Under the pieces are notes generated by a model, which saw only the letters and a program-made list of their open reading frames with translations, had not been told where the DNA came from and did no database searches. This document shows, in pieces, positions 164 to 43,266 of a stretch of DNA of 43,345 nucleotides (positions within the stretch are counted from its first letter, which is position 1; each line of letters begins with the position of its first letter). The stretch is from the IMG/VR virus record IMGVR_UViG_3300009678_000085, positions 1 through 43,345 of that record; one strand, 5' to 3'. The DNA comes from a virus (Duplodnaviria > Caudoviricetes). The position numbers and the translations under genes were made by a program.

Positions 164-177
164 GGGCAACCTTGCCC
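164..177. promoter_or_regulatory. Palindromic site 1 GGGCAACCTTGCCC
   Basis: Exact GGGCAA-NN-TTGCCC in the left non-coding end. Confidence 0.85.
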
Positions 178-220
178 ACTACAGGTAGCGCGCACAGGCA
201 TGCTCGACCACTACAGGTAG
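176..220 (+). repeat. 13-bp direct repeat CCACTACAGGTAG x2
   Basis: Copies at 176..188 and 208..220. Confidence 0.7.
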
Positions 221-479
221 TGTGTGAGAAAAAAGCGCTCTCCCAGCAAATAATGCTTGCACAGTACCGTGGTTCTGATAGAATGCCTATTGTGAGTTGA
301 AGTTGATTGAAGGAAATAGCGCGCGTGTCGCGCACAGGGATTGAAGCCCACGTAAAGACAACGCTACAGGCGTCTGGGCCAGTCTCGCTTGAAAACTGAA
401 TAGGTTCGAATCGGACGCATCTACGGTTGCGTCCGGAGTCAAGCTCGATAGTGGTTTGCGTGTCGCGGCCCCTACGTAC

Positions 480-493
480 GGGCAACCTTGCCC
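480..493. promoter_or_regulatory. Palindromic site 2 GGGCAACCTTGCCC
   Basis: Ends 22 nt upstream of the ParB-like gene ATG at 516. Confidence 0.85.
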
Positions 494-515
494 GTCAACC
501 TCAGAGGTTACGACA

Positions 516-1574
516 ATGGCAGACACAAATACAGCAAAAGGCACCATGATTGATCCGGCGTTCTCGAAGACGACCGACTTGGAAGGCGAGGCGGGCGGAA
601 TCGCGCGGGTCAAGGCGGCATATGAGGCAATCGAGCCCCTGTGTCACCCCATGACCTTGATCGTGCCGCGCGCGTCCTACATCGAACTGGACGCGATCGT
701 GGAGGGCATCAAGCTCCACGGGTACGACCCGTCGGAAGCGATCTTGGTGGACGGCCCTCAGATTCTGGATGGCCGGACCCGCTCCGTGGCGATGTACCTC
801 ATCCACGGAGACAAGTGGTGGACGTTGATTCCGCACCGTCAGGCTACCCGCGAAGAGCGGGCGGATGTCCTGACGGTGGTCCTGCGAAAGAACTTCGCTC
901 GCAGGAACCTTGATCCGGACGCGCGAGCACTGGTCGCGGCACGGATGCTGGTAGGCGAGATTCCGTGCGAAATTCCGGGCGATGCGCCGGAAGGCGGAAG
1001 GCTCCGCGAGAAGATCGCGAACCTCTGCTCTGTGAAGGAGCGATCGGTGGAGTCAGCGAAGAAAGGCCTGCAGCTCCTGCGATATCAGGAGGTCAACCGG
1101 CCGAAAGATCCGGCGTTGGCGAAGGAGGTCGACGACCTCCGGTACGCGGTGCTTCACTCGGAGGTTGCTCCGAATGCTCTGAAGATCCGGGCGGATTCGC
1201 TGAAGACGGGCAAGGTTCACCAGCCCGCTAGGCGTGTCCAGTCGAACACCGAGACGACAGTCGACGGTGCGAAGGCGAACCCGTACGCCGACATTCCGGG
1301 CATGACGCCGGAAGTCGCAGCGGACCGGATGCAAAAGATCAGTCAGGCAATGCGGAAGGCGCTCGAAGGCGTGGAGCCTGACAAGCGCAAAGGATTCCTG
1401 ACCTTGATCGCGAAATTCGCGATTCAGGACGCGATTCGGAACGCGGATCTTCTGGACGCGACTGCGAAGGCGACAAAGCTGGACGCGGATGCCGCGAAGG
1501 CGAAGGCAGCGGTTGAAGCGGCCGCGAAGGCAGCAGCAGCGCCTGCGAAGTCTCGGAAGGCGAAGGCAGCATAA
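516..1574 (+). CDS. ParB/Srx-like N-terminal domain + HTH protein with Ala/Lys-rich tail (ParB-like 1)
   Basis: IKLHGY..ILDGRTR..KNFARRNL motif set; HTH-like LREKIANLCSVKERSVESAKK; C-terminal AKAKAA..KSRKAKAA. Start placed at ATG 516 after GAGGT. Confidence 0.8.
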   Translation: MADTNTAKGTMIDPAFSKTTDLEGEAGGIARVKAAYEAIEPLCHPMTLIVPRASYIELDAIVEGIKLHGYDPSEAILVDGPQILDGRTRSVAMYLIHGDKWWTLIPHRQATREERADVLTVVLRKNFARRNLDPDARALVAARMLVGEIPCEIPGDAPEGGRLREKIANLCSVKERSVESAKKGLQLLRYQEVNRPKDPALAKEVDDLRYAVLHSEVAPNALKIRADSLKTGKVHQPARRVQSNTETTVDGAKANPYADIPGMTPEVAADRMQKISQAMRKALEGVEPDKRKGFLTLIAKFAIQDAIRNADLLDATAKATKLDADAAKAKAAVEAAAKAAAAPAKSRKAKAA

Positions 1575-1639
1575 AGCGATCTAGACCCGGCCACGACACG
1601 GCTAACCACTATCAAGCTTGACTCCCTGCTAACCCCGAC

Positions 1640-1653
1640 GGGCAACATTGCCC
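1640..1653. promoter_or_regulatory. Palindromic site 3 GGGCAACATTGCCC
   Basis: Extends to GACGGGCAA-CA-TTGCCCGTC; just upstream of GGAGG RBS. Confidence 0.85.
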
Positions 1654-1675
1654 GTCCCTAACCGGAGGATGAGAA

Positions 1676-1843
1676 ATGCGGGTTTGTAAATTCCACCCGA
1701 AGGCGACTCCTGCACCATGGTTTGGATCATGCCACGTCAGGATCGGACGCCGGTTCTACACGGCGATTCGACTAGTCGGCCCTTGGCACCTAGTGCGGCC
1801 CTTGCGCTACTCCCTGCAGGACGTGCGCTTCCGCGACGAGTAG
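1676..1843 (+). CDS. Small hypothetical protein (55 aa, MRVCKFHPK...)
   Basis: GGAGG 7 nt upstream; fills the gap; below the ORF-track cutoff. Confidence 0.55.
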   Translation: MRVCKFHPKATPAPWFGSCHVRIGRRFYTAIRLVGPWHLVRPLRYSLQDVRFRDE

Positions 1844-1849
1844 ACAACC

Positions 1850-1881
1850 CCGAAGGCCTGGAGGAGACTCCGGGCCTTCGG
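1850..1881 (+). terminator. 14-bp stem with GAGA tetraloop (terminator or processing hairpin)
   Basis: CCGAAGGCCTGGAG-GAGA-CTCCGGGCCTTCGG; weak U-tail. Confidence 0.5.
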
Positions 1882-1910
1882 TGCGTTCTATTTCGAGCGC
1901 GCGACCTCGC

Positions 1911-1924
1911 GGGCAAACTTGCCC
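1911..1924. promoter_or_regulatory. Palindromic site 4 GGGCAAACTTGCCC
   Basis: Directly before RBS GGAAGGAGG of the gene at 1942. Confidence 0.85.
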
Positions 1925-1941
1925 GTGGAAGGAGGAGAGAG

Positions 1942-2142
1942 ATGGACAGGGGCGGCCCGCTCCATGAGAGAGTGGGCGAACTAGAGGATGAGAGAGTGCT
2001 CCTGCTGGAGCGCATCAACGAGCTGGAGGGCTTCTGCCGCAAGCTCTACTCCTATCTGGAGGGGAGAGATGCGAGCTGGGTCGTTCATAACCACCTTGGT
2101 CAGGACAACCCCTTCGGCGACGAAGAGATGGAGATGATCTAG
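1942..2142 (+). CDS. Hypothetical coiled-coil protein
   Basis: Strong RBS; C-terminal part of ORF 1717..2142. Confidence 0.65.
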   Translation: MDRGGPLHERVGELEDERVLLLERINELEGFCRKLYSYLEGRDASWVVHNHLGQDNPFGDEEMEMI

Positions 2143-2161
2143 GTTGGAAGCCTATTCCTTC

Positions 2162-2305
2162 ATGCTCAACCTGCTACCCGTGTTCCACCTTGCTCGGAAT
2201 AGAGGGCTCCTGAAGGAGCTACTCGCCGAGCAAGGTGTGACCGGGTACAAAGAGGGACTCCTGAAGAGAAACAACTTCAGGTACACCCCAGAGGATTTAG
2301 ACTGA
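2162..2305 (+). CDS. Small hypothetical protein (47 aa)
   Basis: Open frame MLNLLPVFHL...; TGATG overlap with the next gene. Confidence 0.45.
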   Translation: MLNLLPVFHLARNRGLLKELLAEQGVTGYKEGLLKRNNFRYTPEDLD

Positions 2306-2505
2306 TGGCCAGTGGTCTAGTGATAGATGAGAAGCTCTTGGTCCGGTGTCTGAACCGAGCAAGGCGCGCAAAGGTGCTGCTCGAGACTGAGGGCTCACTG
2401 AGTAAGTGCCTGCTCGCGGTGGACAAGGCGGAAAGTCACGTCGTAGAGATCGTGAGAGAGCTGGAGACGGCACTAGGAATCCACCGCACCCCAAAGGACT
2501 GCTGA
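2305..2505 (+). CDS. Hypothetical protein
   Basis: GAGG upstream; operon packing. Confidence 0.6.
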   Translation: MASGLVIDEKLLVRCLNRARRAKVLLETEGSLSKCLLAVDKAESHVVEIVRELETALGIHRTPKDC

Positions 2506-2507
2506 GG

Positions 2508-2693
2508 ATGAGACAGCTATCCTTCGAAGAGTGGCTAGGCCAGGTCAACCGCGCACTGGGCGAGCTGACGAGCGGCATGGTCACGAGCATTGACGAACTG
2601 ATCGGTGACTTGCCCTACTACAACTTCTGGTGCAAGCACGCCAACCCCACAACGGTAGCGCGGAAGGCACTGAAGGAGGCACGGAGCATCTAG
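2508..2693 (+). CDS. Hypothetical phage protein (MRQLSFEEWLGQV...)
   Basis: ATG at 2508 right after the previous stop. Confidence 0.65.
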   Translation: MRQLSFEEWLGQVNRALGELTSGMVTSIDELIGDLPYYNFWCKHANPTTVARKALKEARSI

Positions 2694-2706
2694 CAACAAG
2701 GGGCGC

Positions 2707-2720
2707 GGGCAAGTTAGCCC
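2707..2720. promoter_or_regulatory. Palindromic site 5 (1 mismatch) GGGCAAGTTAGCCC
   Basis: Core of hairpin GGGGCGCGGGC..GCCCGCGCCCC (2700..2727), upstream of GGAGG. Confidence 0.75.
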
Positions 2721-2742
2721 GCGCCCCCTAACCATTCGGAGG

Positions 2743-2988
2743 ATGAGCATGGACAGGCTGCTGTCCTACCTGGGGGATGTCGGATTCGGCATCCTCCTCT
2801 TTCTTGCGCTCAGTGCAATAGGGATGGTGATGCTACTGGGCGTATACCTGCTGACCTTTGTCAGCACCGCGCGTGTTTCCGCCCCACATGACGAGGCACA
2901 AGAGAACCGCGCTTTACTTCAGACTGAGAGGAGAGAGAGTGGCCCCGAAGGAGAGAGAGCCGAGAGAGAGAGTCACCGACTTCATTAA
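2743..2988 (+). CDS. Putative membrane protein
   Basis: Hydrophobic segment GFGILLFLALSAIGMVMLLGVYLLTFV; GGAGG RBS. Confidence 0.55.
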   Translation: MSMDRLLSYLGDVGFGILLFLALSAIGMVMLLGVYLLTFVSTARVSAPHDEAQENRALLQTERRESGPEGERAERESHRLH

Positions 2989-3136
2989 CAAGGTGCCCGA
3001 GCTGGAAAAGATCCTCGATCGCCTGGCCGAACTCGAAGAAGAGTTCATGGAGTTTGATCGCAAGCTGAAGCAGTATATGAGGGATCTCGACATTACGTTC
3101 GACCGGCTCAAAAGAGAGAAGGAAGAGGACTGGTGA
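2888..3136 (+). CDS. Hypothetical coiled-coil protein
   Basis: Charged helical C-terminus; overlaps the next start; start uncertain. Confidence 0.55.
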   Translation: MTRHKRTALYFRLRGERVAPKEREPRERVTDFINKVPELEKILDRLAELEEEFMEFDRKLKQYMRDLDITFDRLKREKEEDW

Positions 3137-3342
3137 TGCCCTCTTTCGAGAACACCGACCCGAAGGTACGTGAGCTTGCGCGTCTGCTTGGTGAGGATTG
3201 CGAGCCGGGCAACTACTTCATCATGCTTGCCCTGAGAAGCACCGACGGTGGATCGCTAGTCTTCGTCCCCGACGCCTCGCCCAGAGAAGCTGTCCGTGTG
3301 CTACGTACGATGGCGGATAGCATCGAAGAGAGAGAGAACTAG
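3136..3342 (+). CDS. Hypothetical protein
   Basis: TGATG coupling. Confidence 0.65.
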   Translation: MPSFENTDPKVRELARLLGEDCEPGNYFIMLALRSTDGGSLVFVPDASPREAVRVLRTMADSIEEREN

Positions 3343-3364
3343 GCTGAAAGGAGGTGAGGAATAG

Positions 3365-3556
3365 ATGTCGCTAATCACCATCATCATCTACTTGATGCTG
3401 ATTGGCCTCCTGCTGTGGATCATCACCACATTCGTGCCGATGGAGCCTGTTATCCGCAATGTGATGATCGCAGTCGTGCTGGTAGTGATCGTTCTCTGGC
3501 TGCTGCAGATGGTAGGGGGGCCACTGGCCAATGTCCGCATCGGCAGTAGTCCATAA
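3365..3556 (+). CDS. Two-TM small membrane protein, Thivi_2564-family-like
   Basis: MSLITIII..IGLLLWII..VPM..VVIVLWLLQ..RIG pattern; strong RBS AAGGAGGTGA. Confidence 0.75.
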   Translation: MSLITIIIYLMLIGLLLWIITTFVPMEPVIRNVMIAVVLVVIVLWLLQMVGGPLANVRIGSSP

Positions 3557-3708
3557 CCTACTGTTCGTTCCTCTCTCAGCAATTAGAGATGACTTCACCC
3601 CCGAGATGGCGCTAGCACTAGACGCTCTTGCCTTGGAGCTAGCCATCGGGGGGTGTATAGGGGGTGGGCTATTTGGAACTAAACTTCTGACGTGGAAAGG
3701 AGAGAGAG

Positions 3709-4224: not shown

Positions 4225-4238
4225 GCAAACTCTAGGGG

Positions 4239-4371: not shown

Positions 4372-4390
4372 CACTTCAACATGGATGAGC

Positions 4391-4404
4391 GGGCAAGTTT
4401 GCCC
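4391..4404. promoter_or_regulatory. Palindromic site 6 GGGCAAGTTTGCCC
   Basis: Immediately followed by AGGAGG RBS and ATG 4415. Confidence 0.85.
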
Positions 4405-4414
4405 AGGAGGTACG

Positions 4415-4934: not shown

Positions 4935-4937
4935 CAG

Positions 4938-5009: not shown

Positions 5010-5027
5010 AGAGATTAGGAGAGAAGG

Positions 5028-5540: not shown

Positions 5541-5554
5541 GGGCAAGTTTGCCC
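5541..5554. promoter_or_regulatory. Palindromic site 7 GGGCAAGTTTGCCC
   Basis: Centre of inverted repeat GGTAGCCGGGCAA-GT-TTGCCCGGCTACC (5534..5561); intergenic. Confidence 0.85.
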
Positions 5555-6120: not shown

Positions 6121-7017
6121 ATGAAGGCAGCAGCAGTACATCATGCTCTGCAATCAGCAGGGTACTTCCCCCGCCGAGAGGAGACGCTAGCTATCTCGGG
6201 GGTGCTGGCTGCGCCTAAGAACACAGGCGCGAGAGCCATGCTCATCGAGGGACCGCCGGGATGCGGTAAGACCTACCTCGCTGAGTGCTGGGCTAAGGCA
6301 ACAGGAGCTACGTACATCTATGGACTACTCCATGCGTGGTCCGGGGAGGACGATCTATTCCAAGGAATTGACGTTGCGTCAGCGGTGGCTGGAGACGCAA
6401 GTGCAGTACGACAGCCGGGGCTTCTGCATCTTGCCGCGATGGCGGCACAAGATGGCCAGGCGATCGTATGCCTGGATGAGATCGACAAGACTGCAGAGAG
6501 GGCAGAGAACCTTCTACTCGACTGGCTCCAGACGGGTCGGGTTCCAATTGCACCCGGAGTCCACATCACGACCCGCCTCGAACGGATCATCGTCTTCGTC
6601 ACGTCGAACGGCGTACGTCCGCTAGGCGAGCCTCTCCTACGTAGGCTCCGCCGTGTGGTGATGGAGCCGCATGACGTAGAGACGGTTGCCAATCTGGTAC
6701 GTGCAGCCACCGACGTACCTCTCGGTGTGTGCAGGCAGGTAGTCAGTGTCTGCACGGCAGCAGCCAAAGCTTTCGAGGGCAACCAGGCTCTCTCTCCACA
6801 GGAGATGGCGAGGGCAGCAGCCGAGATCTACCACAACGCAGAGTCAATCGAAGACGTGCGTACCATGATCGCACGATGGGCACTGAGAGCGAAGGAGATC
6901 TCTCAGGGGTACAGCAAGAACAAGCCAGAAAGTTCAGACAAGAACGTCTGGACCGAAGTCTGTAGGCACAGGCAGCAGGAAGCACGGGCAAGTTTGCCCG
7001 CTTCCGAAGTAGCCTAG
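6121..7017 (+). CDS. MoxR-like AAA+ ATPase
   Basis: Walker A GPPGCGKT, Walker B VCLDEIDK, sensor VTSN, Arg finger LLRRL. Confidence 0.85.
   Translation: MKAAAVHHALQSAGYFPRREETLAISGVLAAPKNTGARAMLIEGPPGCGKTYLAECWAKATGATYIYGLLHAWSGEDDLFQGIDVASAVAGDASAVRQPGLLHLAAMAAQDGQAIVCLDEIDKTAERAENLLLDWLQTGRVPIAPGVHITTRLERIIVFVTSNGVRPLGEPLLRRLRRVVMEPHDVETVANLVRAATDVPLGVCRQVVSVCTAAAKAFEGNQALSPQEMARAAAEIYHNAESIEDVRTMIARWALRAKEISQGYSKNKPESSDKNVWTEVCRHRQQEARASLPASEVA
6986..6999. promoter_or_regulatory. Palindromic site 8 GGGCAAGTTTGCCC
   Basis: In the 3' end of the AAA gene (RASLP), upstream of the vWA RBS. Confidence 0.85.
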
Positions 7018-9138: not shown

Positions 9139-9331
9139 ACTGCAAGTAAGAATCCAAGAGGAAACGTACCAGAGGCTGAAGGTGATTGCCTTCCGAGATG
9201 GTCACATGAGTGTAGCCCGTGTGGTCAATGAGATGATAGAGGAAAGGTTAGGCAACGAAGGCTACAGGAATCTGGATGCTGACCCAGAGCCGGGCGAATT
9301 TGCCCGCGACGAGGAGAAGGAGAAGCGATGA
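9128..9331 (+). CDS. Ribbon-helix-helix (Arc/CopG-like) DNA-binding protein
   Basis: ALQVRIQEETYQRLKVIA..HMSVARVVNEMIEERL. Confidence 0.7.
   Translation: MKHALQVRIQEETYQRLKVIAFRDGHMSVARVVNEMIEERLGNEGYRNLDADPEPGEFARDEEKEKR
9292..9305. promoter_or_regulatory. Palindromic site 9 (1 mismatch) GGGCGAATTTGCCC
   Basis: Upstream of the RBS of the SSB-like gene. Confidence 0.7.
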
Positions 9332-10689: not shown

Positions 10690-11448
10690 ATGGGACGTAC
10701 ATACGCCGAGGCTATCGAGGGACTAAAGACATTCAACATCCACCCGGCAGCAGAGCTGTTCCCGGTGCTGAACGAGAAGGAGATCGCCGAGCTAGCTGTG
10801 TCCATCTCGGAGCATGGACTACGAGACAAGGTAGTCATCATGCCTACTGGCGAGATCCTCGATGGGAGGAATCGCATCCTTGCCCACTACATCCTGGGCT
10901 GTGAGAGCGAGCTTACCTACGAGGAGTTCACCGGGGACGATCCGTACCAGTACGTCTACGACAAGAACATTCTGCGCCGCCACCTGAAGACGAACGTGAA
11001 GGCTGCCATCGCCGCCGAGATGCTGCCGATGATCCGGGCCGATCTGGAGGCGAAGAAGATAGCTGGAGAGGTCGACTCCCACGTTCGCGCACGAGACATT
11101 GCAGCGGACATCATGGGAGTTGGTGGACGTACCGTCGGTGTAGCCGAAGAGGTGATGCTCAAAGCACCCGACCTACACGAGGAGGTGAAGGCAGGGAATC
11201 TCTCTGTCAACGCAGCACTTGAGAAGACCAAGGAAAGAAGCGATCTAACCAATGGCATACGTATCTCCAAGGAGGAGAGAACAACAGAGGGGCTGGTGGC
11301 TAAGTTCAACAAGTTCTTCGAGCAGGCATTCGATCAGTGGCCAGACTCCGTACCCATGCTGATGCTGGCTACGCAGATGTCCGTTGCGGTGGCACGGTGC
11401 GATGACCGTGACAGGGTTCTAGAGGAGGCGAAGAGGGAAGAAGCGTGA
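10690..11448 (+). CDS. ParB/Srx-like N-terminal domain + HTH protein (ParB-like 2)
   Basis: IHPAAELFP..SISEHGLRDKV..EILDGRNR..KNILRRHL; HTH RARDIAADIMGVGGRTV. Confidence 0.85.
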   Translation: MGRTYAEAIEGLKTFNIHPAAELFPVLNEKEIAELAVSISEHGLRDKVVIMPTGEILDGRNRILAHYILGCESELTYEEFTGDDPYQYVYDKNILRRHLKTNVKAAIAAEMLPMIRADLEAKKIAGEVDSHVRARDIAADIMGVGGRTVGVAEEVMLKAPDLHEEVKAGNLSVNAALEKTKERSDLTNGIRISKEERTTEGLVAKFNKFFEQAFDQWPDSVPMLMLATQMSVAVARCDDRDRVLEEAKREEA

Positions 11449-11924: not shown

Positions 11925-11927
11925 CCC

Positions 11928-12024
11928 ACGGTGCCGCCGGGCGCAGCGCAGTTAACTCGGCCGCCGCCCAGTGCGCCGGGCAAACTTGCCCACGGATGGT
12001 CCGTGGACCCGGCGGCACCGTCCA
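11928..12024 (+). other. Multi-branched intergenic fold closed by a perfect 14-bp stem
   Basis: ACGGTGCCGCCGGG (11928..11941) is complementary to 12008..12021; internal hairpins. Confidence 0.6.
11978..11991. promoter_or_regulatory. Palindromic site 10 GGGCAAACTTGCCC
   Basis: Intergenic, inside the folded element. Confidence 0.85.
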
Positions 12025-13657: not shown

Positions 13658-16600
13658 GCATAGGCGTCACTGCGCTCGACGTTGGAAAGGCCAGAGCCGA
13701 CCCGCGTAGGAGCGCCTCCTCTGGATGATTGAAAGACGCCTCCTTCGCTGTTGCCATCAGCGGCGAGAACGGACTAGAAGTAAAGCTATTAGCGAACTCG
13801 CTCACCCCCGCCTTCGCTCCCTCCCATGCCCGTCCTGGGAACGTGGATTCATCAGGTGCATTCTTGAATCCACGCATCGCTTCAACCCCTGCCGACATAG
13901 GAGCAGCCGCTGCTCCGAACGTTCCCTCAAACGCCTGCTTGCTCAGATTCATCCCCATCTCTACCGGGCCTACCGTCTTCTGATCCGACTCCGGCCCAAA
14001 GATGTTCGTGTTGCGGAGAATCTTGCCCGACACGATCGAGCGGAGAATCGCTGCCTCGTACGAGGCAGTGGTCTGGTAGACCGTAGCCCTGGCCAGGAAG
14101 GTAGCTCCAAGCTTCTGGAGTTCCTTGTCTCCACTGGTCAGGAGGTTCTTGATGTTCGCGTCCCAGGTAGAGGGCTGGCGTAGAGCATACGTCTGCCACT
14201 GGAGGCCGAGCATCCTCGGAATAGTCATCTGCGTACCAGGCGATACCTCGCCCGGTGCGTTGAAATACTGCGTATTCCTGACGAAGGACTTGTGTGTCTT
14301 CGTCATGTCATTCTCGCTAAACACACCCCGCCTAGACGCTAGGTCGCTCGGGTCCCATCCGAGTAGCTTAGCCTGCCAAGCTGCTGCCGAGCTGTTAAGG
14401 AGATCGACGTTGTTCGCCATCTCCTTCGACAAGGAAATCGCAGCCGCCACGGACCCCCAGGAATCCCTGGAGCGGAGCCGTGAATTCTCCACCCATTCGA
14501 GCGCCCTGAATCCCCACGTCTCCCGGCCTGCGCCAGAGGCCAGGAACTCTCGCGTCATGCCTGTAGTCAAGGCCCCAGACCCCTCGATGACCTCTCGGGG
14601 GGTCTTTCCTATGTGGGGGATGACTTCGTTCCGATCGTACTCTAGCTGACCGAGCTTGGCCCAATCGTCTCCAAGGAAAATGTGGATCATCTTCCTCTGA
14701 CCGAAGTTAGAGAAAGCAGAGAGGCCAAGGGCTACATCGGAAGTTAGCCCCTGCACCACTCTCGCTAGCTGCATCAGAGTCTCAGGATCATTTCGGTCAA
14801 GAAGATGCTTGGTCGTCCCCTCAAACATGGAGTAGACAGCCTTCCCCTTGGCTCCCTCTTCCTTCCGACGCTCAAGCATGCGCTCTGCGTCATCAGCTAG
14901 CCCCTCGGGCAAATCTGGGTGCGCCTTGAACAACGGCGTATCGGATTTGAGCTGTGTCACCCGGCGACTATCCCACCCGAAGTGATGACCTAGGGAAGTC
15001 TCCTCTGCGAGGCGACGCCCGTGGATAGCCAGGATTCCTTCTGGGTCTACGCTGGCAGGAGAGCTACCGAGAATCTGCCCTACCTGCCTGGAACGTGGGA
15101 AGTCGGGAAGGAAGTCCAGCATCCCCTTCCGTGGACCGCCGTCGTACGGAGCCGGACCAACCCTGGGGAGGTACTTCTTGTACCCGGCCTCGGGGAGTCC
15201 GACCTCTAGCTCGTTCAGCTTACGCAGCTTCCCCGTGACTGCATCCGTCTTCAGTTGGACTAGCCGGTTCGGGCTGTCCAGCGGATCGCCGACCGAACGC
15301 TGGACCCTACCATCCAGAGACTGCAGATCCTCGATCTCATCCTGAATCGCCTCGAAAATCGTCTTCGTATCCTGATCTACGTCTCCTTCACGTATCTTGT
15401 CGCGGGCAAGTTTGCCCTCGGGGCTATCGTAGATCGCCTCGGCAATCAGGGGGCGATCTTGCGGATGCAGTCTCTGCATCAGAGCCTTCACCCGCGTAGA
15501 GAACCGTGCCTCGTTCTGGAAGACATCCCCGCTGTTGTCCATCAGCTTGGTGACCAGGCCCTCCTCTCCGAACCTGGCCATAGCCTGCGGATTACGCACC
15601 AGCCCACCGAAGATACGAGTAGCCGGATAACCAAACTTGCTGTCTATCGTCTCGAACAAGCCAGGGCGGGTACGCAGTGGGTACGATCCAGAGCTAGTGA
15701 CTGTATAGACAGGAGAGCCATCTGGATTCGTCAGCTTACCCTGGGCAACCAGGGGGATAGCCCCTGACCCAGGGCCTGGCGCTGTTACGCTAGCCGGTGC
15801 CTCTGCCACTGGTGCTTCGTTCTTCTGTGCCCAGGGAAAGAGAAGCTTTCCCGCTCTCTCTGTAGCCTCGGGCGTATCTACCGGCTCGTCATAGGGATTC
15901 GGCTTCCGATCGAATCGGAACCACTGCTTCTCGGATGGCGGAACTTCAGTGGAGGCGGCGGGAGGAGTTACCTCGGCAGGCGGAGGGGAAGAAGTGCCTC
16001 CGCTAGTAGCGCCAAGCGTACCCCCTCCCGCGTTTCCTCTGTCGTATCTGAAAGGATCAAGGATGTCAGAGAAACCCTGCTGCCCACCAGGGCCTGCTAG
16101 CCCTGTCTTCGGTGGCTGGCGCGGTGGCTCAGAGTCTGTCTTCGGCGGCTGACGTACATTTTCAGCAAAGGACTGCAGCTCGTCCCGGTCCTTCGGTACC
16201 CACGGGTTCGCGGTCTGTGTATCTGTCCGCCTGATCCCAGGAGGGGTATTGACCCTCTCCGGTGGGATGACCGGCAAGTTCCTAGACGGTACGTCTCCTG
16301 CCCTACCTTGGCTGACAGAATAGAGGGGCCTGCCGCGTCGGTTCCGTACGAACGCTTCTGCCTCACCGAACCGCTTGAAGGTACCGAGATTCAGTTCGCT
16401 GTCAGAATACTGCCCAGGCTCACCACCGGGTCGAGTAACGTAGTACCCATCCGATCCTTTGGTAATATTGTAGTCGTCCATGGAGAAGTCCCCATGGAGA
16501 CGCCTCCCCTTCGACTCGTCTGGTGCCCACGTCTCTTGGATGTTGCTGACCGGAGCGTCTGGATCTCCCTGGTACCGGTAGGGGTTGTCCGGGTCGATGG

Positions 16601-17585
16601 TTGAGTACGGTGCGTTCGGATCACCCTCGAATCGCTCGATCGCAGAGGGCCGCCCACGTAGCTCATCCGGGGGGCGGAACTCTGTCGTGACCGTAGGCTT
16701 GTACTCGATCCTGAGCTGGTTCTGGCGCTCTGGCTTCGGATAGTCCATCAGGACATCCTCGGCCAGGTTTACCACAGGAGGGGGAGGAGGAGGCTCAGGG
16801 GCAGCAGGGGGCGGAGGGGCTGCAGCCGCTGCGTCACGGGCAGCCTTCTGCCCTAGGATGTCCTGGGCTAGGGCTACGGCGTCTGCTTCCTTCTGCGCCT
16901 TGAACTGGGCTGCCTTCGTGTTGATGACGTTCGACGCTACCCCGCCAGGGGCAGAGAAGACTCCACCAAGCGCACCAGTTACGGCCGTTCCGTACGGATC
17001 GAATTCGTTCCCTCGGAGCCAGTCGGCAACAGTCTTGATACCGGCTGTAGCAGCAGCTCCTGCCCCAGAGTGACGGAGGATGTTCTTGGCTAGCCCTACA
17101 ACCGGACGCCTTGTGAGTGCGCTCTGGAGGATGGCCGGGAGGGAGCCGTAGGCTGCGTACTCGGTTCCGTGGCTGAGGTCCGTTTCTGGAGCATCGAATC
17201 CAGCATTACGCTGTGCCCAATCGGCCGTGAGTCCAGAAACCGCTCCAGCAATAGTTCCACCAATAATGCCTGATCCTGGGAGGACAAAATTAAGAGCTGC
17301 TGGCCCCGCCATAGCTGCAGCTTTTCCAAACGCTTCGCCTTCTCCGAAATCGTAGTAACCAGCGGCAGGCCCTTCGTGCTCATACTCGCTACCTTGTGGG
17401 TTATCCAACCTGTCGTAGGTCTTCTGATAGATCGGATCGCGCGTGGGCAAACTTGCCCCGCCCTCTCTCAGTCGAGCCCGCTGGCTCGGGGTCATGGCCG
17501 ATGTGTCGACAGCCCCTTCTGCTGGGGCTGTCTCTACTACCTGCTGCCCCTGGGCAGCCCTGTATCGCTCAGAAGGGGTGCTCAT
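13608..17585 (-). CDS. Large internal virion / DNA ejection protein (1325 aa)
   Basis: Last and largest gene of the structural arm; Gly/Ala-rich N-terminal segments, Pro-rich linker, helical C-terminus. Confidence 0.65.
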   Translation of the reverse strand: MSTPSERYRAAQGQQVVETAPAEGAVDTSAMTPSQRARLREGGASLPTRDPIYQKTYDRLDNPQGSEYEHEGPAAGYYDFGEGEAFGKAAAMAGPAALNFVLPGSGIIGGTIAGAVSGLTADWAQRNAGFDAPETDLSHGTEYAAYGSLPAILQSALTRRPVVGLAKNILRHSGAGAAATAGIKTVADWLRGNEFDPYGTAVTGALGGVFSAPGGVASNVINTKAAQFKAQKEADAVALAQDILGQKAARDAAAAAPPPPAAPEPPPPPPVVNLAEDVLMDYPKPERQNQLRIEYKPTVTTEFRPPDELRGRPSAIERFEGDPNAPYSTIDPDNPYRYQGDPDAPVSNIQETWAPDESKGRRLHGDFSMDDYNITKGSDGYYVTRPGGEPGQYSDSELNLGTFKRFGEAEAFVRNRRGRPLYSVSQGRAGDVPSRNLPVIPPERVNTPPGIRRTDTQTANPWVPKDRDELQSFAENVRQPPKTDSEPPRQPPKTGLAGPGGQQGFSDILDPFRYDRGNAGGGTLGATSGGTSSPPPAEVTPPAASTEVPPSEKQWFRFDRKPNPYDEPVDTPEATERAGKLLFPWAQKNEAPVAEAPASVTAPGPGSGAIPLVAQGKLTNPDGSPVYTVTSSGSYPLRTRPGLFETIDSKFGYPATRIFGGLVRNPQAMARFGEEGLVTKLMDNSGDVFQNEARFSTRVKALMQRLHPQDRPLIAEAIYDSPEGKLARDKIREGDVDQDTKTIFEAIQDEIEDLQSLDGRVQRSVGDPLDSPNRLVQLKTDAVTGKLRKLNELEVGLPEAGYKKYLPRVGPAPYDGGPRKGMLDFLPDFPRSRQVGQILGSSPASVDPEGILAIHGRRLAEETSLGHHFGWDSRRVTQLKSDTPLFKAHPDLPEGLADDAERMLERRKEEGAKGKAVYSMFEGTTKHLLDRNDPETLMQLARVVQGLTSDVALGLSAFSNFGQRKMIHIFLGDDWAKLGQLEYDRNEVIPHIGKTPREVIEGSGALTTGMTREFLASGAGRETWGFRALEWVENSRLRSRDSWGSVAAAISLSKEMANNVDLLNSSAAAWQAKLLGWDPSDLASRRGVFSENDMTKTHKSFVRNTQYFNAPGEVSPGTQMTIPRMLGLQWQTYALRQPSTWDANIKNLLTSGDKELQKLGATFLARATVYQTTASYEAAILRSIVSGKILRNTNIFGPESDQKTVGPVEMGMNLSKQAFEGTFGAAAAPMSAGVEAMRGFKNAPDESTFPGRAWEGAKAGVSEFANSFTSSPFSPLMATAKEASFNHPEEALLRGSALAFPTSSAVTPMLTEWARKRRLATSEAP
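15404..15417. promoter_or_regulatory. Palindromic site 11 GGGCAAGTTTGCCC
   Basis: Intragenic (EGKLAR). Confidence 0.8.
17445..17458. promoter_or_regulatory. Palindromic site 12 GGGCAAACTTGCCC
   Basis: Intragenic (GASLP). Confidence 0.8.
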
Positions 17586-22408: not shown

Positions 22409-22422
22409 GGGCAAACTTGCCC
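22409..22422. promoter_or_regulatory. Palindromic site 13 GGGCAAACTTGCCC
   Basis: Fills the 29-nt intergenic gap, adjacent to the - strand GGAG RBS. Confidence 0.85.
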
Positions 22423-27894: not shown

Positions 27895-28012
27895 TCATTC
27901 CACCCGTGGGCAAGTTTGCCCGTGATCTACCTCTGCCCTGGTAGTACGAGCGCATGAAGCGATCTGCTAGCAGCCGACGCTTCCGCTCCGCAGCTTCAGC
28001 ATCGAGATCCAC
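27809..28012 (-). CDS. Possible small hypothetical protein
   Basis: GTG abuts the upstream stop, but the ORF overlaps the adaptor start by 86 nt. Confidence 0.35.
   Translation of the reverse strand: MDLDAEAAERKRRLLADRFMRSYYQGRGRSRANLPTGGMSGGPPNPQRGNHLERRPDGRAVGRVDAR
27908..27921. promoter_or_regulatory. Palindromic site 14 GGGCAAGTTTGCCC
   Basis: 13 nt upstream of the adaptor start. Confidence 0.85.
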
Positions 28013-29985: not shown

Positions 29986-30687
29986 TTACGCCGCGTTGTA
30001 CAAGCTGCCGCGACGCTTCGCCACGTTTCCTTGCATCAGCTCATACCGCTCTCTCCGCATCTCTTCGTCCGTCTTGAACTGGGCAGCACTCTGTGGACCG
30101 TCCCGGTACGCCCCCGGCACTGGAGACGCCTGCCCACGCATCTGACGCTCAACGTACTTCTTCTCTTCCTCGACCCGCCGCGCCGTCTCCCACTTCCAGT
30201 CCCGCGTCCACTGGACCGCCTGGTTGATGCGCTGCTCGTTCGTCCAGTGCCGCGCCTCTGGATGCTGGTTTAGGTGATCCATGTAGCCAGAGAGCTTGTC
30301 CTCGAAACCCTGGAGATCAGGGTTCTGGTTCATCACCGTTCGAGCGTAGTTCCGAGCTTCGAGGTCTTGCGCTGTCTGCTTCAGCCGAACGTCGAACTCC
30401 TGCCTCAGCTCCTCGGCGGCTTCCTTCTTCGCAAGCTCCTTGGTCTTCCTAAACGCCTCGATAGGGTCTTCGGCGAAGTCAGCGAAAAAACGCTCTCGGA
30501 CTCGTTCCTTATCTCCGGGGTCGGGGGACTTGGGGGCGGGCGTGGGCAAACTTGCCCGTGCCTTTTCAGCCTCTGCAATACGCTGTTCCAGAATCTGCTG
30601 ATTGCGGACGATGACTTGGTTCCCACGGAGGATTTCCTGAATCATCTCCTCTGCGGAAGGCGTCGGATTAGACTGCTGCGCGGACAT
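29986..30687 (-). CDS. Putative scaffolding protein
   Basis: Charged helical protein just upstream of the MCP; FFADFAEDP. Confidence 0.65.
   Translation of the reverse strand: MSAQQSNPTPSAEEMIQEILRGNQVIVRNQQILEQRIAEAEKARASLPTPAPKSPDPGDKERVRERFFADFAEDPIEAFRKTKELAKKEAAEELRQEFDVRLKQTAQDLEARNYARTVMNQNPDLQGFEDKLSGYMDHLNQHPEARHWTNEQRINQAVQWTRDWKWETARRVEEEKKYVERQMRGQASPVPGAYRDGPQSAAQFKTDEEMRRERYELMQGNVAKRRGSLYNAA
30544..30557. promoter_or_regulatory. Palindromic site 15 GGGCAAACTTGCCC
   Basis: Intragenic (RASLP). Confidence 0.8.
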
Positions 30688-32106: not shown

Positions 32107-34081
32107 TGACATTCCCCACCTGAATCCAGTCACCAATAGACGCCATAAAGAGCAGAGTGATCGAATCACAACGATCAAGATCAATCGTTGCTGCACTGAG
32201 CTGGGTATTGGAATCATCAGCAAACGTGATGGTCTGTGCTGCTGTCTCGTCGATGTTCACAATATACAGCAGTTGCCCGTCCGCACCATCGGTGATGGCT
32301 GTAGCACCACTATCAATAGGATCAGTAGTCGCGGTAACCTGCACGATCGTAGCACTAGGCGTTATCGTAAATTCATCTGCGAGAGCCTGTGTAATAGGTG
32401 GGTAGGCTTCAGAACCAGCATTACGAACACCCACCGTCGTAGCCGGTGTAGATCCCCTAGTCGGACGCTGAACATCAACACCAAACTGATTCGTAATCTG
32501 TGGAGTACCATTGATCGCCGGGTCCATGGCAAAAAATCCACGAAATGAAGTTATGTTCAGTTGTCCTGCTGTCTCAGTAAATATCGGATTGGCCACAAAG
32601 CTAGATGGAGCGGTTATGGCAAAGATGCCGCCAGCATCCGTATTGCGGTATATGGTATTATCCTCGAACGGCTTAGACAGGGACATTGTTCCTGTCCCTG
32701 ATGTCGCCGAATAATCGACGGTAATACCAGATCGAAAAACAGCCGGAGTCGGGGGTACCTTGGCGGCCGCCGTTGCAGTCAGCAACGCCGTGGCGTTGAA
32801 CAGTGACCAAGAGGACGCCTGGGTGCCAGCACCTGATACCGTGAACGTTCCGCCGCCTTCAACACCTGTGTAGGTGTTGATGATGACGCCCGAAGCATCG
32901 TCGTAATTGTAAGTGGGAGCGATACTGAGCCCACGCACGATGGAGGTTCCACCAGCTATCCCGGTGACAGATATGGTCGGGTCCCACTTCCCACCGACCG
33001 CCACGCTGCTGTCTACTGGATCAACGATCCCATCTGACCATTCCCACTCTGTCGCGAGCCCGAAGTAAATGGTGCCCTTCGTAGGGTTGGATGTACTCTC
33101 CAGTACGAGAAGCTCACCTGACGCCGTTCCACCATAAAGGATCTGTCCACCCGCACCTGTACGACCCGCAAGGAGCGCGTACTGGGTATGGTCGTCAGCA
33201 GTTAGGCCCGTCAGGCTTGCATGTGGACGAGTGCCTATCTGGGTGATGTCGGTAAGCGTAAGAGTGTCTGGAATTTGCGCATCCGTAGCCGACCCCGAAA
33301 TATCCGTAAACGCTGGCTGCGAACAATCGAGCACGAAGTCAGCATCAATTCCCTTCGCCCATCTACTGGCCGTGCAATCTGACGCAACTGCAGGCATCAG
33401 CGTCGCTTCAAGCTCGCCTGTCCCAAAGAAGCCAGTCGCAGAGTCGCCTGTCATAGCAACGACAGCCGAGCCTGCCGTGGTGACGGTGATGCTGTTTGGC
33501 ACGTCGGCATCGGTAAGCAGCACGTCGACCCAGTTGGTGCCGTTGAACTGCAAGAAGTCGCCGCTCGCTGCCGTGGCGGTCGAGACATCGGTTAGATCGT
33601 CGAGCGCACCGCCACCACCTCCAGTAAGATCGGTGTCGTCGATCCAGTTGGTGCCGTTGTACTTCAACACCGCTCCGGTTGCTGGAGAAGTGATAATAAC
33701 GTCGCTCAGGTCATCCAGTAGATTTGGGATGACCATACCACCACTGTCGCACTGCATCTGATTGAACGAATCAATCACCAGTCTGTCGTCAGGGTCTATA
33801 CAGGAGCCAACGGTGGGGTAGACAGCGGTCGCGTCGTCGAAGAAGAACTCCACCCGGTCTGGAACGGTGAGCAGGGTTCCTACCCCACCACCGTTCTGCA
33901 GGTCGACGATCAGCCCTGTCGTCGGGCTACCGACATCAACCGTGAACGTGTTGATCTCGTTCGTGCTGGACGGATCTCCCCCTCCGCCTCCACCGCCCCC
34001 TCCACCCTGGTAGCCAGAGGCGTGGGCAAAATTGCCCGCGAAGATGAGCAGGAGAAAGAGAGCTAGACTTCCTGGCCCCAC
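32093..34081 (-). CDS. Tail fibre/spike-like protein with signal-peptide-like N-terminus
   Basis: Two LDDL.DV...L.(Y/F)NGTNW repeats, HASLTGLTADDHTQY motif, Gly10 run. Confidence 0.7.
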   Translation of the reverse strand: MGPGSLALFLLLIFAGNFAHASGYQGGGGGGGGGGDPSSTNEINTFTVDVGSPTTGLIVDLQNGGGVGTLLTVPDRVEFFFDDATAVYPTVGSCIDPDDRLVIDSFNQMQCDSGGMVIPNLLDDLSDVIITSPATGAVLKYNGTNWIDDTDLTGGGGGALDDLTDVSTATAASGDFLQFNGTNWVDVLLTDADVPNSITVTTAGSAVVAMTGDSATGFFGTGELEATLMPAVASDCTASRWAKGIDADFVLDCSQPAFTDISGSATDAQIPDTLTLTDITQIGTRPHASLTGLTADDHTQYALLAGRTGAGGQILYGGTASGELLVLESTSNPTKGTIYFGLATEWEWSDGIVDPVDSSVAVGGKWDPTISVTGIAGGTSIVRGLSIAPTYNYDDASGVIINTYTGVEGGGTFTVSGAGTQASSWSLFNATALLTATAAAKVPPTPAVFRSGITVDYSATSGTGTMSLSKPFEDNTIYRNTDAGGIFAITAPSSFVANPIFTETAGQLNITSFRGFFAMDPAINGTPQITNQFGVDVQRPTRGSTPATTVGVRNAGSEAYPPITQALADEFTITPSATIVQVTATTDPIDSGATAITDGADGQLLYIVNIDETAAQTITFADDSNTQLSAATIDLDRCDSITLLFMASIGDWIQVGNVNALC
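34024..34037. promoter_or_regulatory. Palindromic site 16 GGGCAAAATTGCCC
   Basis: Intragenic (AGNFAH). Confidence 0.8.
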
Positions 34082-36925: not shown

Positions 36926-37263
36926 CCGGTATAACCTCTACGCAAGGCTGCCTCTAGCGGTCCGAGGTTGCCAGGGGGCGGGGCTCGGAGGGGCTGGTGC
37001 TCCTCTGGAGCGATCCTAGACCCTGCGGGCAAACTTGCCCGTGGTTGCTCTGCAACTGGGGTAGGCTGAATCATCGGTACTGTGTTTCCTAGTACCTTGG
37101 CTACTGCTAAGCCTATCTCAACAGCCTGATCCAAATTAAAGGTTTGCTGGTGAACCTTGAATAAGCCGTGCCGCTCGGCCAGATCCCTGACCTTCTCCGG
37201 GTTATTCACGATGTCGCGGAGAAACGCAACCTCGGCCTGTAGGTTCTCGAAAGCCTGAATCAC
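36922..37263 (-). CDS. Hypothetical protein
   Basis: GTG start overlaps the nuclease TGA (GTGA). Confidence 0.55.
   Translation of the reverse strand: MIQAFENLQAEVAFLRDIVNNPEKVRDLAERHGLFKVHQQTFNLDQAVEIGLAVAKVLGNTVPMIQPTPVAEQPRASLPAGSRIAPEEHQPLRAPPPGNLGPLEAALRRGYTG
37027..37040. promoter_or_regulatory. Palindromic site 17 GGGCAAACTTGCCC
   Basis: Intragenic (RASLP), about 100 nt upstream of the portal start. Confidence 0.8.
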
Positions 37264-39204: not shown

Positions 39205-39432
39205 TTACCTGTTCGCTAGGGCAATTCTTGTAGGAGGAAGCACTACTGACTCCTCTTTGAAGTTGAGCCCCAGGTCTGCCATCAGCTTGATTAGGTCAAC
39301 GCTAATGCTCTTGCCGGTAAGAACGAGGATTAGCACACCTAGAGCCGTTTTGATAGCCAGGATGTCCTTCTCTGGAATCTGGGCAAGTTTGCCCGGTGTC
39401 TCCTCAAGTTTTTCTGGTGTCTCAGAAGACAT
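39205..39432 (-). CDS. Small hypothetical protein, first gene of the late arm
   Basis: AAGGAGGT RBS; abuts terL. Confidence 0.6.
   Translation of the reverse strand: MSSETPEKLEETPGKLAQIPEKDILAIKTALGVLILVLTGKSISVDLIKLMADLGLNFKEESVVLPPTRIALANR
39381..39394. promoter_or_regulatory. Palindromic site 18 GGGCAAGTTTGCCC
   Basis: Intragenic (PGKLAQ), beside the early/late divergence. Confidence 0.8.
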
Positions 39433-41363: not shown

Positions 41364-41753
41364 AAAATAAATATATTACAGGTTTTACAAGTCCTTGTTT
41401 TTACTGGCTTTCCCAAACCTAAGAAAAGTTGACAGTTTTTTTTAAGGGGTATAAGACTTAGGAGTCGGTCGCCTCCGAGCGAGCGCGATTTAGCGCTCGC
41501 GTGCGGCACAGCCGCGCGACGGGAGACGACGATACCTTGGTAAACGCGCTCTTTCGCGACATTGCCATTTTTTCTTTTTTTCCGGTTTTTTCTTTTTTAA
41601 GGGCTCCCATAAGATACCTATAGGTACTCTGGTATACACTGATACCCTGGTTACCAGTTGATGGAAGAGGAGTCTGAGATAGGTCTTGTTAGCGGCGTGT
41701 AGATCTGTAGATGTCTCTTGACCTCTCAGACGTTTAGATGTAGGAACTAGGGT
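41364..41753. other. Putative replication origin / control region
   Basis: Non-coding, AT-rich tracts, GC hairpins, GATACC repeats, directly after the helicase. Confidence 0.5.
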
Positions 41754-41981
41754 ATGGCAGAGACAAAGAGGTGTTTGAGCGTTAATGACCTAGCAGAAGC
41801 TGCAGGCGTTAGTAGGGCATTGGTCTATCAGATGGCTAGAAGTGGCCAACTGAAGACTGTGAGATTCGGGAGCCAGAAGAGGGGTAGAGTCCTTATTCCC
41901 TCTTCAGAGGTAGATCGGATTCTGAGCCCTACAGTTCCTGAGCTTCCTAGGCCCGATCTCCCTGAAACCCCTGGGTCCTAA
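41754..41981 (+). CDS. Excisionase-like (HTH_17) DNA-binding protein
   Basis: LSVNDLAEAAGVSRALVYQMARSGQLKTVRFG..RVLIP. Confidence 0.8.
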   Translation: MAETKRCLSVNDLAEAAGVSRALVYQMARSGQLKTVRFGSQKRGRVLIPSSEVDRILSPTVPELPRPDLPETPGS

Positions 41982-42000
41982 AGACCTACGGCGAAACTGT

Positions 42001-42036
42001 AAAACCCCCTTACTTCTTATGAGGTAAGGGGGTTTT
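42001..42036. terminator. Intrinsic terminator, probably bidirectional
   Basis: AAAACCCCCTTACTTC-TTAT-GAGGTAAGGGGGTTTT. Confidence 0.75.
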
Positions 42037-42052
42037 CTGCTATGAGTAGGTA

Positions 42053-42310
42053 ATGGGTGATCTAGTCTTTCTGCCTACGGCAAAAAAAAGTAAAGACAAA
42101 GTAGTAGTGCTGAAGAACGATAGATGGGTCTTCCTATGCAACGAAGGTCATGAGCATCTCCTAAACACTGATACTCTGTTGCAGATGATCGAGACGGGCA
42201 AATTTGCCCTCGTTCCTTCCTGTGTGATACGTCGTATACTTACCGAATGGGGTTGCTGTAAGTCCGTTGGTTGCGTAGAACACGCCATAGAAGAGGTGTT
42301 GGAGAAGTGA
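42053..42310 (+). CDS. Cys-containing hypothetical protein
   Basis: 85 aa ORF; coupled to the next gene. Confidence 0.6.
   Translation: MGDLVFLPTAKKSKDKVVVLKNDRWVFLCNEGHEHLLNTDTLLQMIETGKFALVPSCVIRRILTEWGCCKSVGCVEHAIEEVLEK
42196..42209. promoter_or_regulatory. Palindromic site 19 GGGCAAATTTGCCC
   Basis: Perfect palindrome, intragenic (TGKFAL). Confidence 0.8.
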
Positions 42311-42549
42311 AGTGCGAGACTTGCTTGCAAGAAAACGCCGTCCTTTACCAGATCCTATGGATTCCAGATCAGACAAACATGGGAGGGATATCTCTGATGC
42401 CTCTCTGCCCAGAGTGCCGTCAGACTACGAGTACGAATCCTTCTGTGAGCACGGTGAAGCCTTTCGAGCCCGACTTACGAATGCCCCACGAGCGAAAGAC
42501 ACCCGAGACGGAGGACCGTCACGAAAAGGGAGAACTAAATGAAACCTAA
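42307..42549 (+). CDS. Small zinc-finger protein
   Basis: GTG start overlapping the previous stop; CETC...CPEC. Confidence 0.55.
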   Translation: MKCETCLQENAVLYQILWIPDQTNMGGISLMPLCPECRQTTSTNPSVSTVKPFEPDLRMPHERKTPETEDRHEKGELNET

Positions 42550-43222
42550 AACCTTCCTTGTCCTTGGCCTTCTTGCCTTCTCTGCAGGAGGTCTGATTGC
42601 CCTCCTCTCTGGCTGTTCCCAGTGGCCTCGAACAAAGAGTACCAAGAGCGTATCGACCTACTCCTCGATCCCCTACCAACTGAATGTCTCCGGTTACCAG
42701 AATGCCTCCGGTTACCTTGTGGCTACTGGTGGTGCTCCACAACCTACCCCTCCTCCTCTCCCTCAACCTACTCCCCCTCCTGGCCCTCAACCTACCCCTC
42801 CTTCCCCTCCCGTCGCTAACTGCTCCTCCCATACAGAACTAATCTCGTCCTCTTTCTACGTAGGCCCTGGTGTGTGGCAGACCAAAACCCTCAAAGTAGA
42901 AGGAGGGAAACGTAGCAATCCCTGCTACAAAGCTACTACCACCTCTCCTGCCTCCCGTGTGCGTATCGAGATGGCTTCCAAATGCACGGGTAACAACACC
43001 CTCCTCTCTGTCTGGCCTCCCTCTGGTTCTGCCTTCTCTAACGGTACCCTCATGCCTACCTTCGCTAACGTTCCTCGCTCTGCTGACTACGGTGACGCTG
43101 GGAAACCTACCAATTACGTCCCGCCCACTCGCTTCAATATCGCTGTCGATGGACTAGACCCTGGAACTGACTGTAACAACATCAACAGCTACGACTTGAT
43201 AGTCAAGGTTGATCCACATTGA
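42539..43222 (+). CDS. Putative lipoprotein with Pro/Thr linker
   Basis: MKPK + hydrophobic core + lipobox LSGC; QPTPPP x3; four further Cys. Confidence 0.75.
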   Translation: MKPKTFLVLGLLAFSAGGLIALLSGCSQWPRTKSTKSVSTYSSIPYQLNVSGYQNASGYLVATGGAPQPTPPPLPQPTPPPGPQPTPPSPPVANCSSHTELISSSFYVGPGVWQTKTLKVEGGKRSNPCYKATTTSPASRVRIEMASKCTGNNTLLSVWPPSGSAFSNGTLMPTFANVPRSADYGDAGKPTNYVPPTRFNIAVDGLDPGTDCNNINSYDLIVKVDPH

Positions 43223-43230
43223 CTGTACGG

Positions 43231-43266
43231 AGGACTGGGGGCAAACTTGCCCCTGGTCCTTTTTTA
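43231..43266 (+). terminator. Intrinsic terminator whose stem is palindromic site 20 (43239..43252)
   Basis: AGGACTGGGGGCAA-AC-TTGCCCCTGGTCCT-TTTTT. Confidence 0.8.

Follow-up and report, generated by a model that had tools for sequence, protein, structure and literature searches.

A genome-wide array of twenty palindromes in an uncultured phage and two ParB-like proteins as its candidate readers

The window analysed here is the whole of IMG/VR virus record IMGVR_UViG_3300009678_000085 (43,345 nucleotides, nt), the podovirus-like genome of an uncultured soil and groundwater phage. It carries 20 copies of the spaced palindrome GGGCAA-NN-TTGCCC and encodes two proteins with a predicted ParB fold followed by a helix-turn-helix (HTH), named ParB-like 1 (516..1574, + strand) and ParB-like 2 (10690..11448, + strand). 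These two proteins are likely to bind the sites. The fuller account, given somewhat better than an even chance, is that a dimer of these proteins loads at the 20 palindromes as double-stranded DNA, and would coat the genome and repress the early-gene leaders that contain sites.

The palindrome array

The array comprises 18 exact copies and two copies with one mismatch (2707 and 9292) over the whole window. All 20 were present where a sequence-only reading of this DNA had placed them. That reading had also counted thirteen identical 14-mers, and 13 of the 18 exact sites are GGGCAAACTTGCCC in either orientation, with 7 AC and 6 GT centres on the + strand. No exact match to the motif occurred in 100 dinucleotide shuffles of the window (chance 0.00), in agreement with the earlier estimate of far below one. 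When flanks were symmetrised over the 40 half-sites a pyrimidine (Y) was found at -1 in 35/40 and a purine (R) at -2 in 32/40, as expected from the RY bias and the site of about 18 bp proposed before. The centre was R-Y in 35/40 half-sites. The symmetrised consensus is RYGGGCAARYTTGCCCRY, with about 25 bits. A weight matrix scored the 20 sites at 21.9-27.7 bits. The next best match was a copy with two mismatches at 1208 (10.1 bits).

The largest gap between sites is 5,499 nt and 8 of the 20 sites lie within the first 7 kb, so that the limit of about 5.5 kb and the denser left end described earlier both stand. The 13 sites beyond 6 kb are spaced more evenly than random (coefficient of variation 0.39, p ~0.0008, with the boundary picked post hoc). 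Over the whole genome the evenness had a p value of 0.036. Twelve sites lie between open reading frames (ORFs), and in the left arm many of these are directly upstream of ribosome-binding sites. The other eight are within ORFs, in two reading frames, and are encoded as A-S-L-P or G-K/N-L/F-A. Random synonymous recoding (2000 runs) gave 0.021 expected sites within ORFs and never more than one.

Among the exact sites the arms are invariant in sequence and no compensatory changes were seen. On the coding strand the centre is oriented 6 AC to 7 GT. The invariant arms, a centre unoriented to transcription and the retention of coding copies by codon choice make binding sites of a dimeric protein the best reading of the array, and this supports the inference first made from the letters. 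On the coding strand an A lies directly 3' of the site in nine sites while the mirror T 5' of the site never occurs, perhaps through strand purine skew.

The ParB-like proteins and their family

ParB-like 1 and ParB-like 2 are paralogues with 32% identity over 113 amino acids (aa), and both are members by sequence of one family. Profile A1 was built with both window proteins, and searches gave 175 homologues of ParB-like 2 and 55 representatives for ParB-like 1. In Foldseek searches the predicted structure of ParB-like 2 matched pNOB8-like ParB, ParB, Noc, Spo0J and KorB (E 6e-5 to 8e-4), and that of ParB-like 1 matched the same top targets more weakly (E 0.014-0.07). Both paralogues show a ParB N-domain fold and then an HTH domain, ParB-like 1 with the weaker matches. 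ParB-like 1 has G86-R87-T88-R89 in the N-domain, the HTH recognition helix V173-KERSVESA and a Lys/Ala-rich tail. ParB-like 2 has G59-R60-N61-R62 and the HTH helix V144-GGRTVGVA. The canonical ParB nucleotide-binding motif is GxRRxxA. The window proteins carry a GxxR nucleotide-binding motif (G86-RTR and G59-RNR) of which the G and R are invariant in alignments A1 and A4. Residues 131-176 of ParB-like 2 are invariant among relatives of 85-100% identity. Fusion to MT-A70 or N6/N4 methyltransferases is seen in many homologues of ParB-like 2; both window proteins are without a fused enzyme. Pfam ParB_N is present in three other family members.

The sites associated with the family were studied in two sets of genes. 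The first set consisted of 80 IMG/VR loci (the best 80 of 533 confirmed) with 81 genes. The second, independent set (the best 80 of 119) gave 79 genes. Of these 45 had <60% identity to the first set, and dereplication reduced them to 36. A palindrome was present in the DNA encoding the linker between the N-domain and the HTH in 61/81 genes, compared to 5/81 in each of two control stretches. In the independent set the figures were 33/36 genes and 4/36 controls. The pooled set contained 81 dereplicated genes from 136 palindrome-bearing rows (160 rows in total), and GCAA on both arms was the commonest class (36/81), with GGCAA in 14 and GGGCAA in one. This commonest class, GCAA-AT-TTGC, is the core of the phage motif, which therefore belongs to the main site class of the family.

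Similarity of the recognition helix tracked similarity of the site with N-domain identity removed (partial Mantel r 0.35, 0/3000 permutations). For the helix preceding it r was 0.08 (p 0.09). Arg at helix position +7 went with C at base 3 in 18/19 genes, compared to 2/62 without it, and Arg at +3 was associated with C at base 4 and G at base 5. The two window proteins share an Arg at +3 and a residue other than Arg at +7, so the two strongest rules predict the GCAA that is observed. Further residue-base pairs in the phage ParB-like linkers were Ala at +6 with T at base 6 and Arg at +2 with G at base 7. Similar helices paired with similar sites turn up repeatedly in separate clades of the N-domain tree. 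The linker palindromes, the shared core class and the covariation with the recognition helix suggest that the sites of the array are likely loading sites of a ParB-type dimer.

Likeness of a family helix to that of ParB-like 1 predicted likeness to the motif (rho 0.34 and 0.41, pooled 0.38, p 0.00025), and of the two proteins it is ParB-like 1 for which the GCAA-TTGC core is best predicted. The family helices closest to VKERSVESA carry GGCAAATTTGCC, and the nearest helix neighbour of ParB-like 1, L086, carries GGGGCAAATTTGCCCC, with the 12 fixed bases of the phage. The ParB-like 1 gene is flanked by sites 480 and 1640 and contains the remnant at 1208. GGCAA arms were present at some helices near that of ParB-like 2 (L111, L065 and L057). 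Judged by sequence, ParB-like 1 fits as the reader by its helix and ParB-like 2 by its conservation, and both may bind.

A number of observations weigh against reading of the array by these two proteins. The helix correlation for ParB-like 2 was weak (0.14 and 0.19, not significant; pooled 0.20, p 0.04). ParB-like 1 has Glu at +6, a residue paired with C at base 6 in 12/16 cases, which counts against it as the reader. The outer GG is not predicted by single-residue rules, and the Arg at +2 that pairs with G at base 7 is in neither protein. In X15, a relative of the phage, 455-1816 (ParB-like 1) had no cover at 80%, although the contig continues for 1,355 letters and X15 keeps sites. Tree-aware tests found at most four well-supported independent pairs, in the same direction but too few for significance (p at least 0.125), and both window proteins are long branches on the N-domain tree. 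Neither window gene has a linker palindrome, with scores of 5.5 and 5.75 equal to background. Pfam ParB_N (PF02195) had no matches in the genome at E 0.1. Repeats of the same 14-mer also occur in G006 and in the gut contigs L280 and L308, unrelated DNA in which this family was not found. Finally, 30 family records hold 0-5 copies of GCAANNTTGC each compared to 20 here. Arrays are therefore not the family norm, and by sequence comparison the 20-site array is apparently a lineage-specific expansion. A spaced-palindrome scan of the 80 family loci found no comparable array. Weak spaced-palindrome signals of 3-5 copies were seen at family-bearing loci (L065, L100, L114, L117, L122, L128 and L461), six among the 80 scanned.

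Sites along the genome, relatives and other DNA

The left arm of the genome contains sites in leaders and around the ParB-like 1 gene. Site 164..177 (centre CC) is in the left-end leader and site 480..493 (CC) is 22 nt upstream of the ATG of ParB-like 1. The degenerate copy at 1208..1221, the best match beyond the 20 sites, lies within this gene after the HTH. Site 1640..1653 (CA) is directly downstream of the gene and is followed by site 1911..1924 (AC). Site 2707..2720 (one mismatch) is within a longer hairpin and 22 nt upstream of an ATG. Site 4391..4404 (GT) is upstream of a ribosome-binding site, and the arms of site 5541..5554 (GT) continue for 7 further perfect pairs. Site 6986..6999 (GT) is within the AAA ATPase gene, in the C-terminal tail, and site 9292..9305 (one mismatch) is 22 nt upstream of the ATG at 9328. 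An ATG exactly 22 nt downstream was seen at sites 480, 2707, 9292 and 1640, in four early-gene leaders. Site 11978..11991 (AC) is upstream of a predicted tandem-HTH gene (11996-12694) and lies in a longer inverted repeat (11930-12020).

The remaining sites are among the late genes and at the right end. Two are within a 1325-aa gene, at 15404..15417 (codons G-K-L-A) and near its start at 17445..17458 (A-S-L-P). Site 22409..22422 is between two late genes and site 27908..27921 is upstream of the adaptor gene. Site 30544..30557 (A-S-L-P) is within the gene preceding the major capsid gene, and site 34024..34037 (centre AA, G-N-F-A) is near the start of a 662-aa gene. Sites 37027..37040 (A-S-L-P) and 39381..39394 (G-K-L-A) are within a 218-aa gene preceding the portal gene and an 88-aa gene preceding the terminase ATPase gene, respectively. 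Site 42196..42209 (AT, G-K-F-A) is within an 85-aa gene. The last site, 43239..43252 (AC), is in the middle of a predicted intrinsic terminator with 15 pairs and a U-tail.

The window is the entire virus record and its genes include portal, adaptor, capsid, terminase ATPase, helicase, exonuclease and AAA genes. The CheckV completeness of the record is 49%. At this completeness the lack of a ParA (AAA_31) match and of a tyrosine integrase match in the window leaves both absences unproven. Near-identical DNA was present in groundwater, sediment and soil sequencing runs, and no RNA dataset with the phage was among the runs listed. The AAA protein (6121-7017) is AAA_5/MoxR-like and is followed by a 496-aa gene without a family match, possibly its partner (6121-8523, + strand). 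The large terminase is apparently split on the - strand into an ATPase ORF (38308-39204), a 111-aa ORF (37976-38311) and a 243-aa ORF (37260-37991). The last of these is likely the nuclease part, without a family match, and the two terminase parts are adjacent in the relatives G071-G073. The same 14 bases are found at both genome ends (1-14 and 43332-43345) and may be a short terminal repeat, the core of an attachment site or an overlap left by assembly. In the sequencing runs some contigs continue past base 1 of the window.

The comparison with X15 covers 1-13600, with ~5-9% differing letters on long pieces (40 variant rows listed, 847 further). Among the variant rows listed, conservation at the same position comes down to two site-level observations. 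Site 11978 is exact in X15 across a replacement of a 79-base spacer by one of 19 bases. Site 1911 is altered to GGGCGAATTTGCCC, a variant also found at 9292. Homology to the window starts again at 2693 in both X15 and X9, 14 nt upstream of site 2707, and in X15 it also does so at most 50 nt upstream of 4391 and 5541. X15 is ~91-95% alike elsewhere, and its first gene (455-1816) was replaced or has strongly diverged. Both the motif and the ParB-like family are missing from G071, a circular relative that has only virion genes in common with the phage, and capsid relatives at 24-59% identity are without the motif. Searches for related phages through the capsid, the exonuclease and a relative of ParB-like 2 gave only the 100% identical fragment G001, or nothing. 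An excess of CGGC-N6-GCCG in G071 (24 copies) was rejected as its centre is unconserved and it resembles codon periodicity.

The 18-bp pattern matched 41 loci in IMG/VR. Four of these belong to a single record with 100% identity to the window, and the other 37 are lone matches. No other independent IMG/VR record has more than one match, so no second phage there shares the array. Scans of genome contigs and metagenome contigs gave 120 loci (47/64 parts) and 121 loci (37/64 parts), respectively, among the matches listed, mostly single and at chance level. An Acidobacteriota genome, G006, has 14 exact copies in 4.6 Mb, a density ~150-fold below that of the phage. Its copies carry a foot (GTAG/GTAA/GTAC) and loops that vary, some of the copies match phage sites over 20-21 nt, and the genome has 8 Y1 transposase matches. 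GTAG-type repetitive extragenic palindromic (REP) elements have a tetranucleotide foot 5' of a hairpin. The G006 copies (L253-L264) form a species-restricted, REP-like family, with 0-2 copies in 60 relatives of G006. Such a foot is missing from the phage sites, which have no conserved bases at -7 to -4. No spacer-length match to window positions 1-20000 was found in G006 or G007 (best E 0.045).

Gut contigs L280, L281, L308, L309, L310 and L334 have 3-6 core copies with AAAGT/RCTTT-type flanks. These sit at gene junctions, after one stop codon and before the ribosome-binding site that follows it, in a conjugative-element-like leading region with YodL, DUF3846, LPD25 and a primase zinc finger. 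No member of the ParB-like family was found within 8 kb of the gut-element sites. The element was not found in 401 genomes, one clostridial class sample, and its best plasmid match is without its sites. The 14-mer recurs elsewhere, but a host-wide signal, which the sequence-only reading had named as the finding that would undo its proposal, was not found in the genome scans; the phage host was not identified.

Proposed explanation, alternatives and known systems

In the proposed explanation a ParB-type dimer would load at each palindrome, close as a clamp on nucleotide binding and slide or spread along the DNA, by analogy to ParB, KorB and BisD. One site per 2-3 kb would suffice to cover the genome. 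Sites in early-gene leaders would act in repression, in the manner of KorB. If the proteins do bind, coating and repression as the purpose is an evenly balanced proposition. An extended version holds that the phage has two diverged ParB clamps, one from the first gene and one from the replication block, and that a single ancestral in-gene site was moved out into 20 evenly spaced loading sites. The result would be a ParA-free phage chromatin that coats the genome, marks it as self and times early versus late expression. This version is doubtful. If true, the same logic would explain the repeats of Cluster O mycobacteriophages.

The ParB-like proteins could also read the sites for positioning or maintenance of the DNA, through host ParA, SMC or a membrane tether in a plasmid-like carrier state. 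With no integrase match any carrier state would be extrachromosomal. N15 has a ParB-type protein with dispersed palindromes, and a ParB fold with dispersed palindromes is the layout of both N15 and RK2. However, there is no ParA match, the ParA-binding motif in the description given in PMC12704722 is in neither N-terminus, and 20 evenly spaced sites would exceed the needs of a centromere. Positioning is unlikely. Still less likely is a genome-wide repressor of another kind, either the tandem-HTH protein (11996-12694) or the HTH_17 protein (41754-41981, E 1e-8). Site 11978 is directly upstream of the tandem-HTH gene, whose resemblance to HTH proteins is no more than a lead (Atlas scores of at most 0.83), and Cluster O phages too have three candidate binders (PMC4351075). 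This leaves unexplained why the motif fits the commonest site class of a ParB-like family that the phage encodes twice.

A host signal copied by the phage, as a REP-like repeat or a host protein site, was given a small probability. The 14 exact copies in G006 and the 3-6 copies in the gut contigs are in its favour, but the G006 copies have a foot and variable loops where the phage sites are footless, their density is ~150-fold lower, G006 relatives hold 0-2 copies and the array was confined to one independent IMG/VR record. Less probable again is that the sites act through hairpins in RNA or in single-stranded DNA, whether as terminators, processing sites or hairpin promoters. Site 43239 is a strong predicted terminator, the regions of 2707, 5541 and 11978 fold beyond shuffles (z -4 to -6), and the A directly 3' of nine sites, with its mirror T never seen, favours template-strand pairing. 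Against this, the arms are invariant without compensatory changes, the centre orientation is 6:7, shuffles fold as well as sites 22409, 27908 and 9292, and most sites extend by 0-3 Watson-Crick pairs. By the folding predictions a few sites likely double as strong hairpins, that at 43239 as a terminator. The least probable reading is that the sites are recombination junctions which shuffle early-gene cassettes. Homology resumes near 2707 (X15 and X9), 4391 and 5541 (X15), and repeat-mediated recombination has been reported in Cluster O (PMC4351075). However, eight sites are intragenic, some of them in virion genes, no recombinase was found in the family searches of the window, and junctions near conserved sites are also expected from selection keeping the sites.

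Binding by the ParB-like proteins can be compared with a number of known systems. The sequence-only reading had found that the motif matched none of the analogues it listed, and the motif sequence was not found as text in the literature searched. Its list missed the closest published case, the Cluster O mycobacteriophages such as Corndog, in which 34 17-bp palindromes in about 70 kb have no assigned function (PMC4351075). An orphan ParB-domain protein, gp90, is one of three candidate binders there, and no evidence is offered as to which of them binds (PMC4351075). As in this phage, the Cluster O palindrome is genome-wide, has arms that do not vary and favours one asymmetric centre, is unoriented to transcription, is found both between genes and within them (about a third in genes there) and is denser at one end (PMC4351075). 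Cluster O phages have an orphan ParB-domain gene and no integrase or parAB (PMC4351075), and here too ParB-like genes stand without an integrase or ParA match. The sequence is different, and the layout is 7-3-7 there compared to 6-2-6 here (PMC4351075). Corndog gp90 matches Pfam ParB_N and its HTH region is weakly like this family (E ~1e-3 to 1e-4). The gp90 gene (L478 8425-9933) has no repeat copy inside. Corndog is a cultured phage that combines the ParB_N and HTH orphan gp90 with the 34-site array.

KorB of RK2 is also a ParB-family HTH protein with dispersed palindromic sites (OB) on its element, and as a cytidine triphosphate (CTP) clamp that slides and represses at long range it is a model for the proposed mechanism (PMC11790492). 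KorB structures were matched by both window models. Unlike here, the KorB clamp is locked by KorA, it also serves in partition, and it acts on a plasmid at a different site (PMC11790492); no KorA-like partner was identified in the phage. In ParB-parS and Noc with its binding site (NBS), a dimeric HTH likewise reads a palindrome (16 bp there), and a few residues in or after the recognition helix switch specificity, which parallels the covariation suggested in the phage family (PMC7383237). The phage differs in that it has no ParA match, its site is unrelated to parS or NBS and its proteins are outside Pfam ParB_N. BisD-bisS of ICEclc resembles the phage as a ParB-like clamp on a mobile element, with sites in genes and sliding for gene control (PMC12409273). 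It has two sites, ~50 kb of sliding, an activator domain and BisC, compared to 20 sites and no such domain seen here (PMC12409273). Cluster A stoperators are likewise numerous and spread over a phage genome, both within genes and between them, but they are asymmetric and oriented to transcription whereas the phage sites are palindromic and unoriented at 6:7 (PMC4351075). Orphan ParB-CTPase folds are common on phages, with methyltransferase fusions (PMC12704722). The main text of PMC12704722 gives no target palindromes for phage ParB folds, and in the part of PMC13229309 used here such folds are likewise without target sites. No report of a phage ParB bound to genome-wide sites was found in the literature searched (subscription papers and supplements were outside it). 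This phage stands out in that it has two paralogues, has lost the in-gene site and carries 20 sites in an even array.

In the literature searched orphan phage ParB folds have had no assigned DNA targets, and since 2015 no reader has been assigned to the Cluster O arrays. The present genome links both, in that it offers the sequence of a site, two proteins that may read it and a helix-to-base code from 81 family genes. It provides a testable candidate reader for a published kind of phage repeat that is without an explanation. If clamps do spread from these sites, phage CTP-type sliding clamps would have uses beyond partition, for example in the timing of genes or the shielding of DNA.

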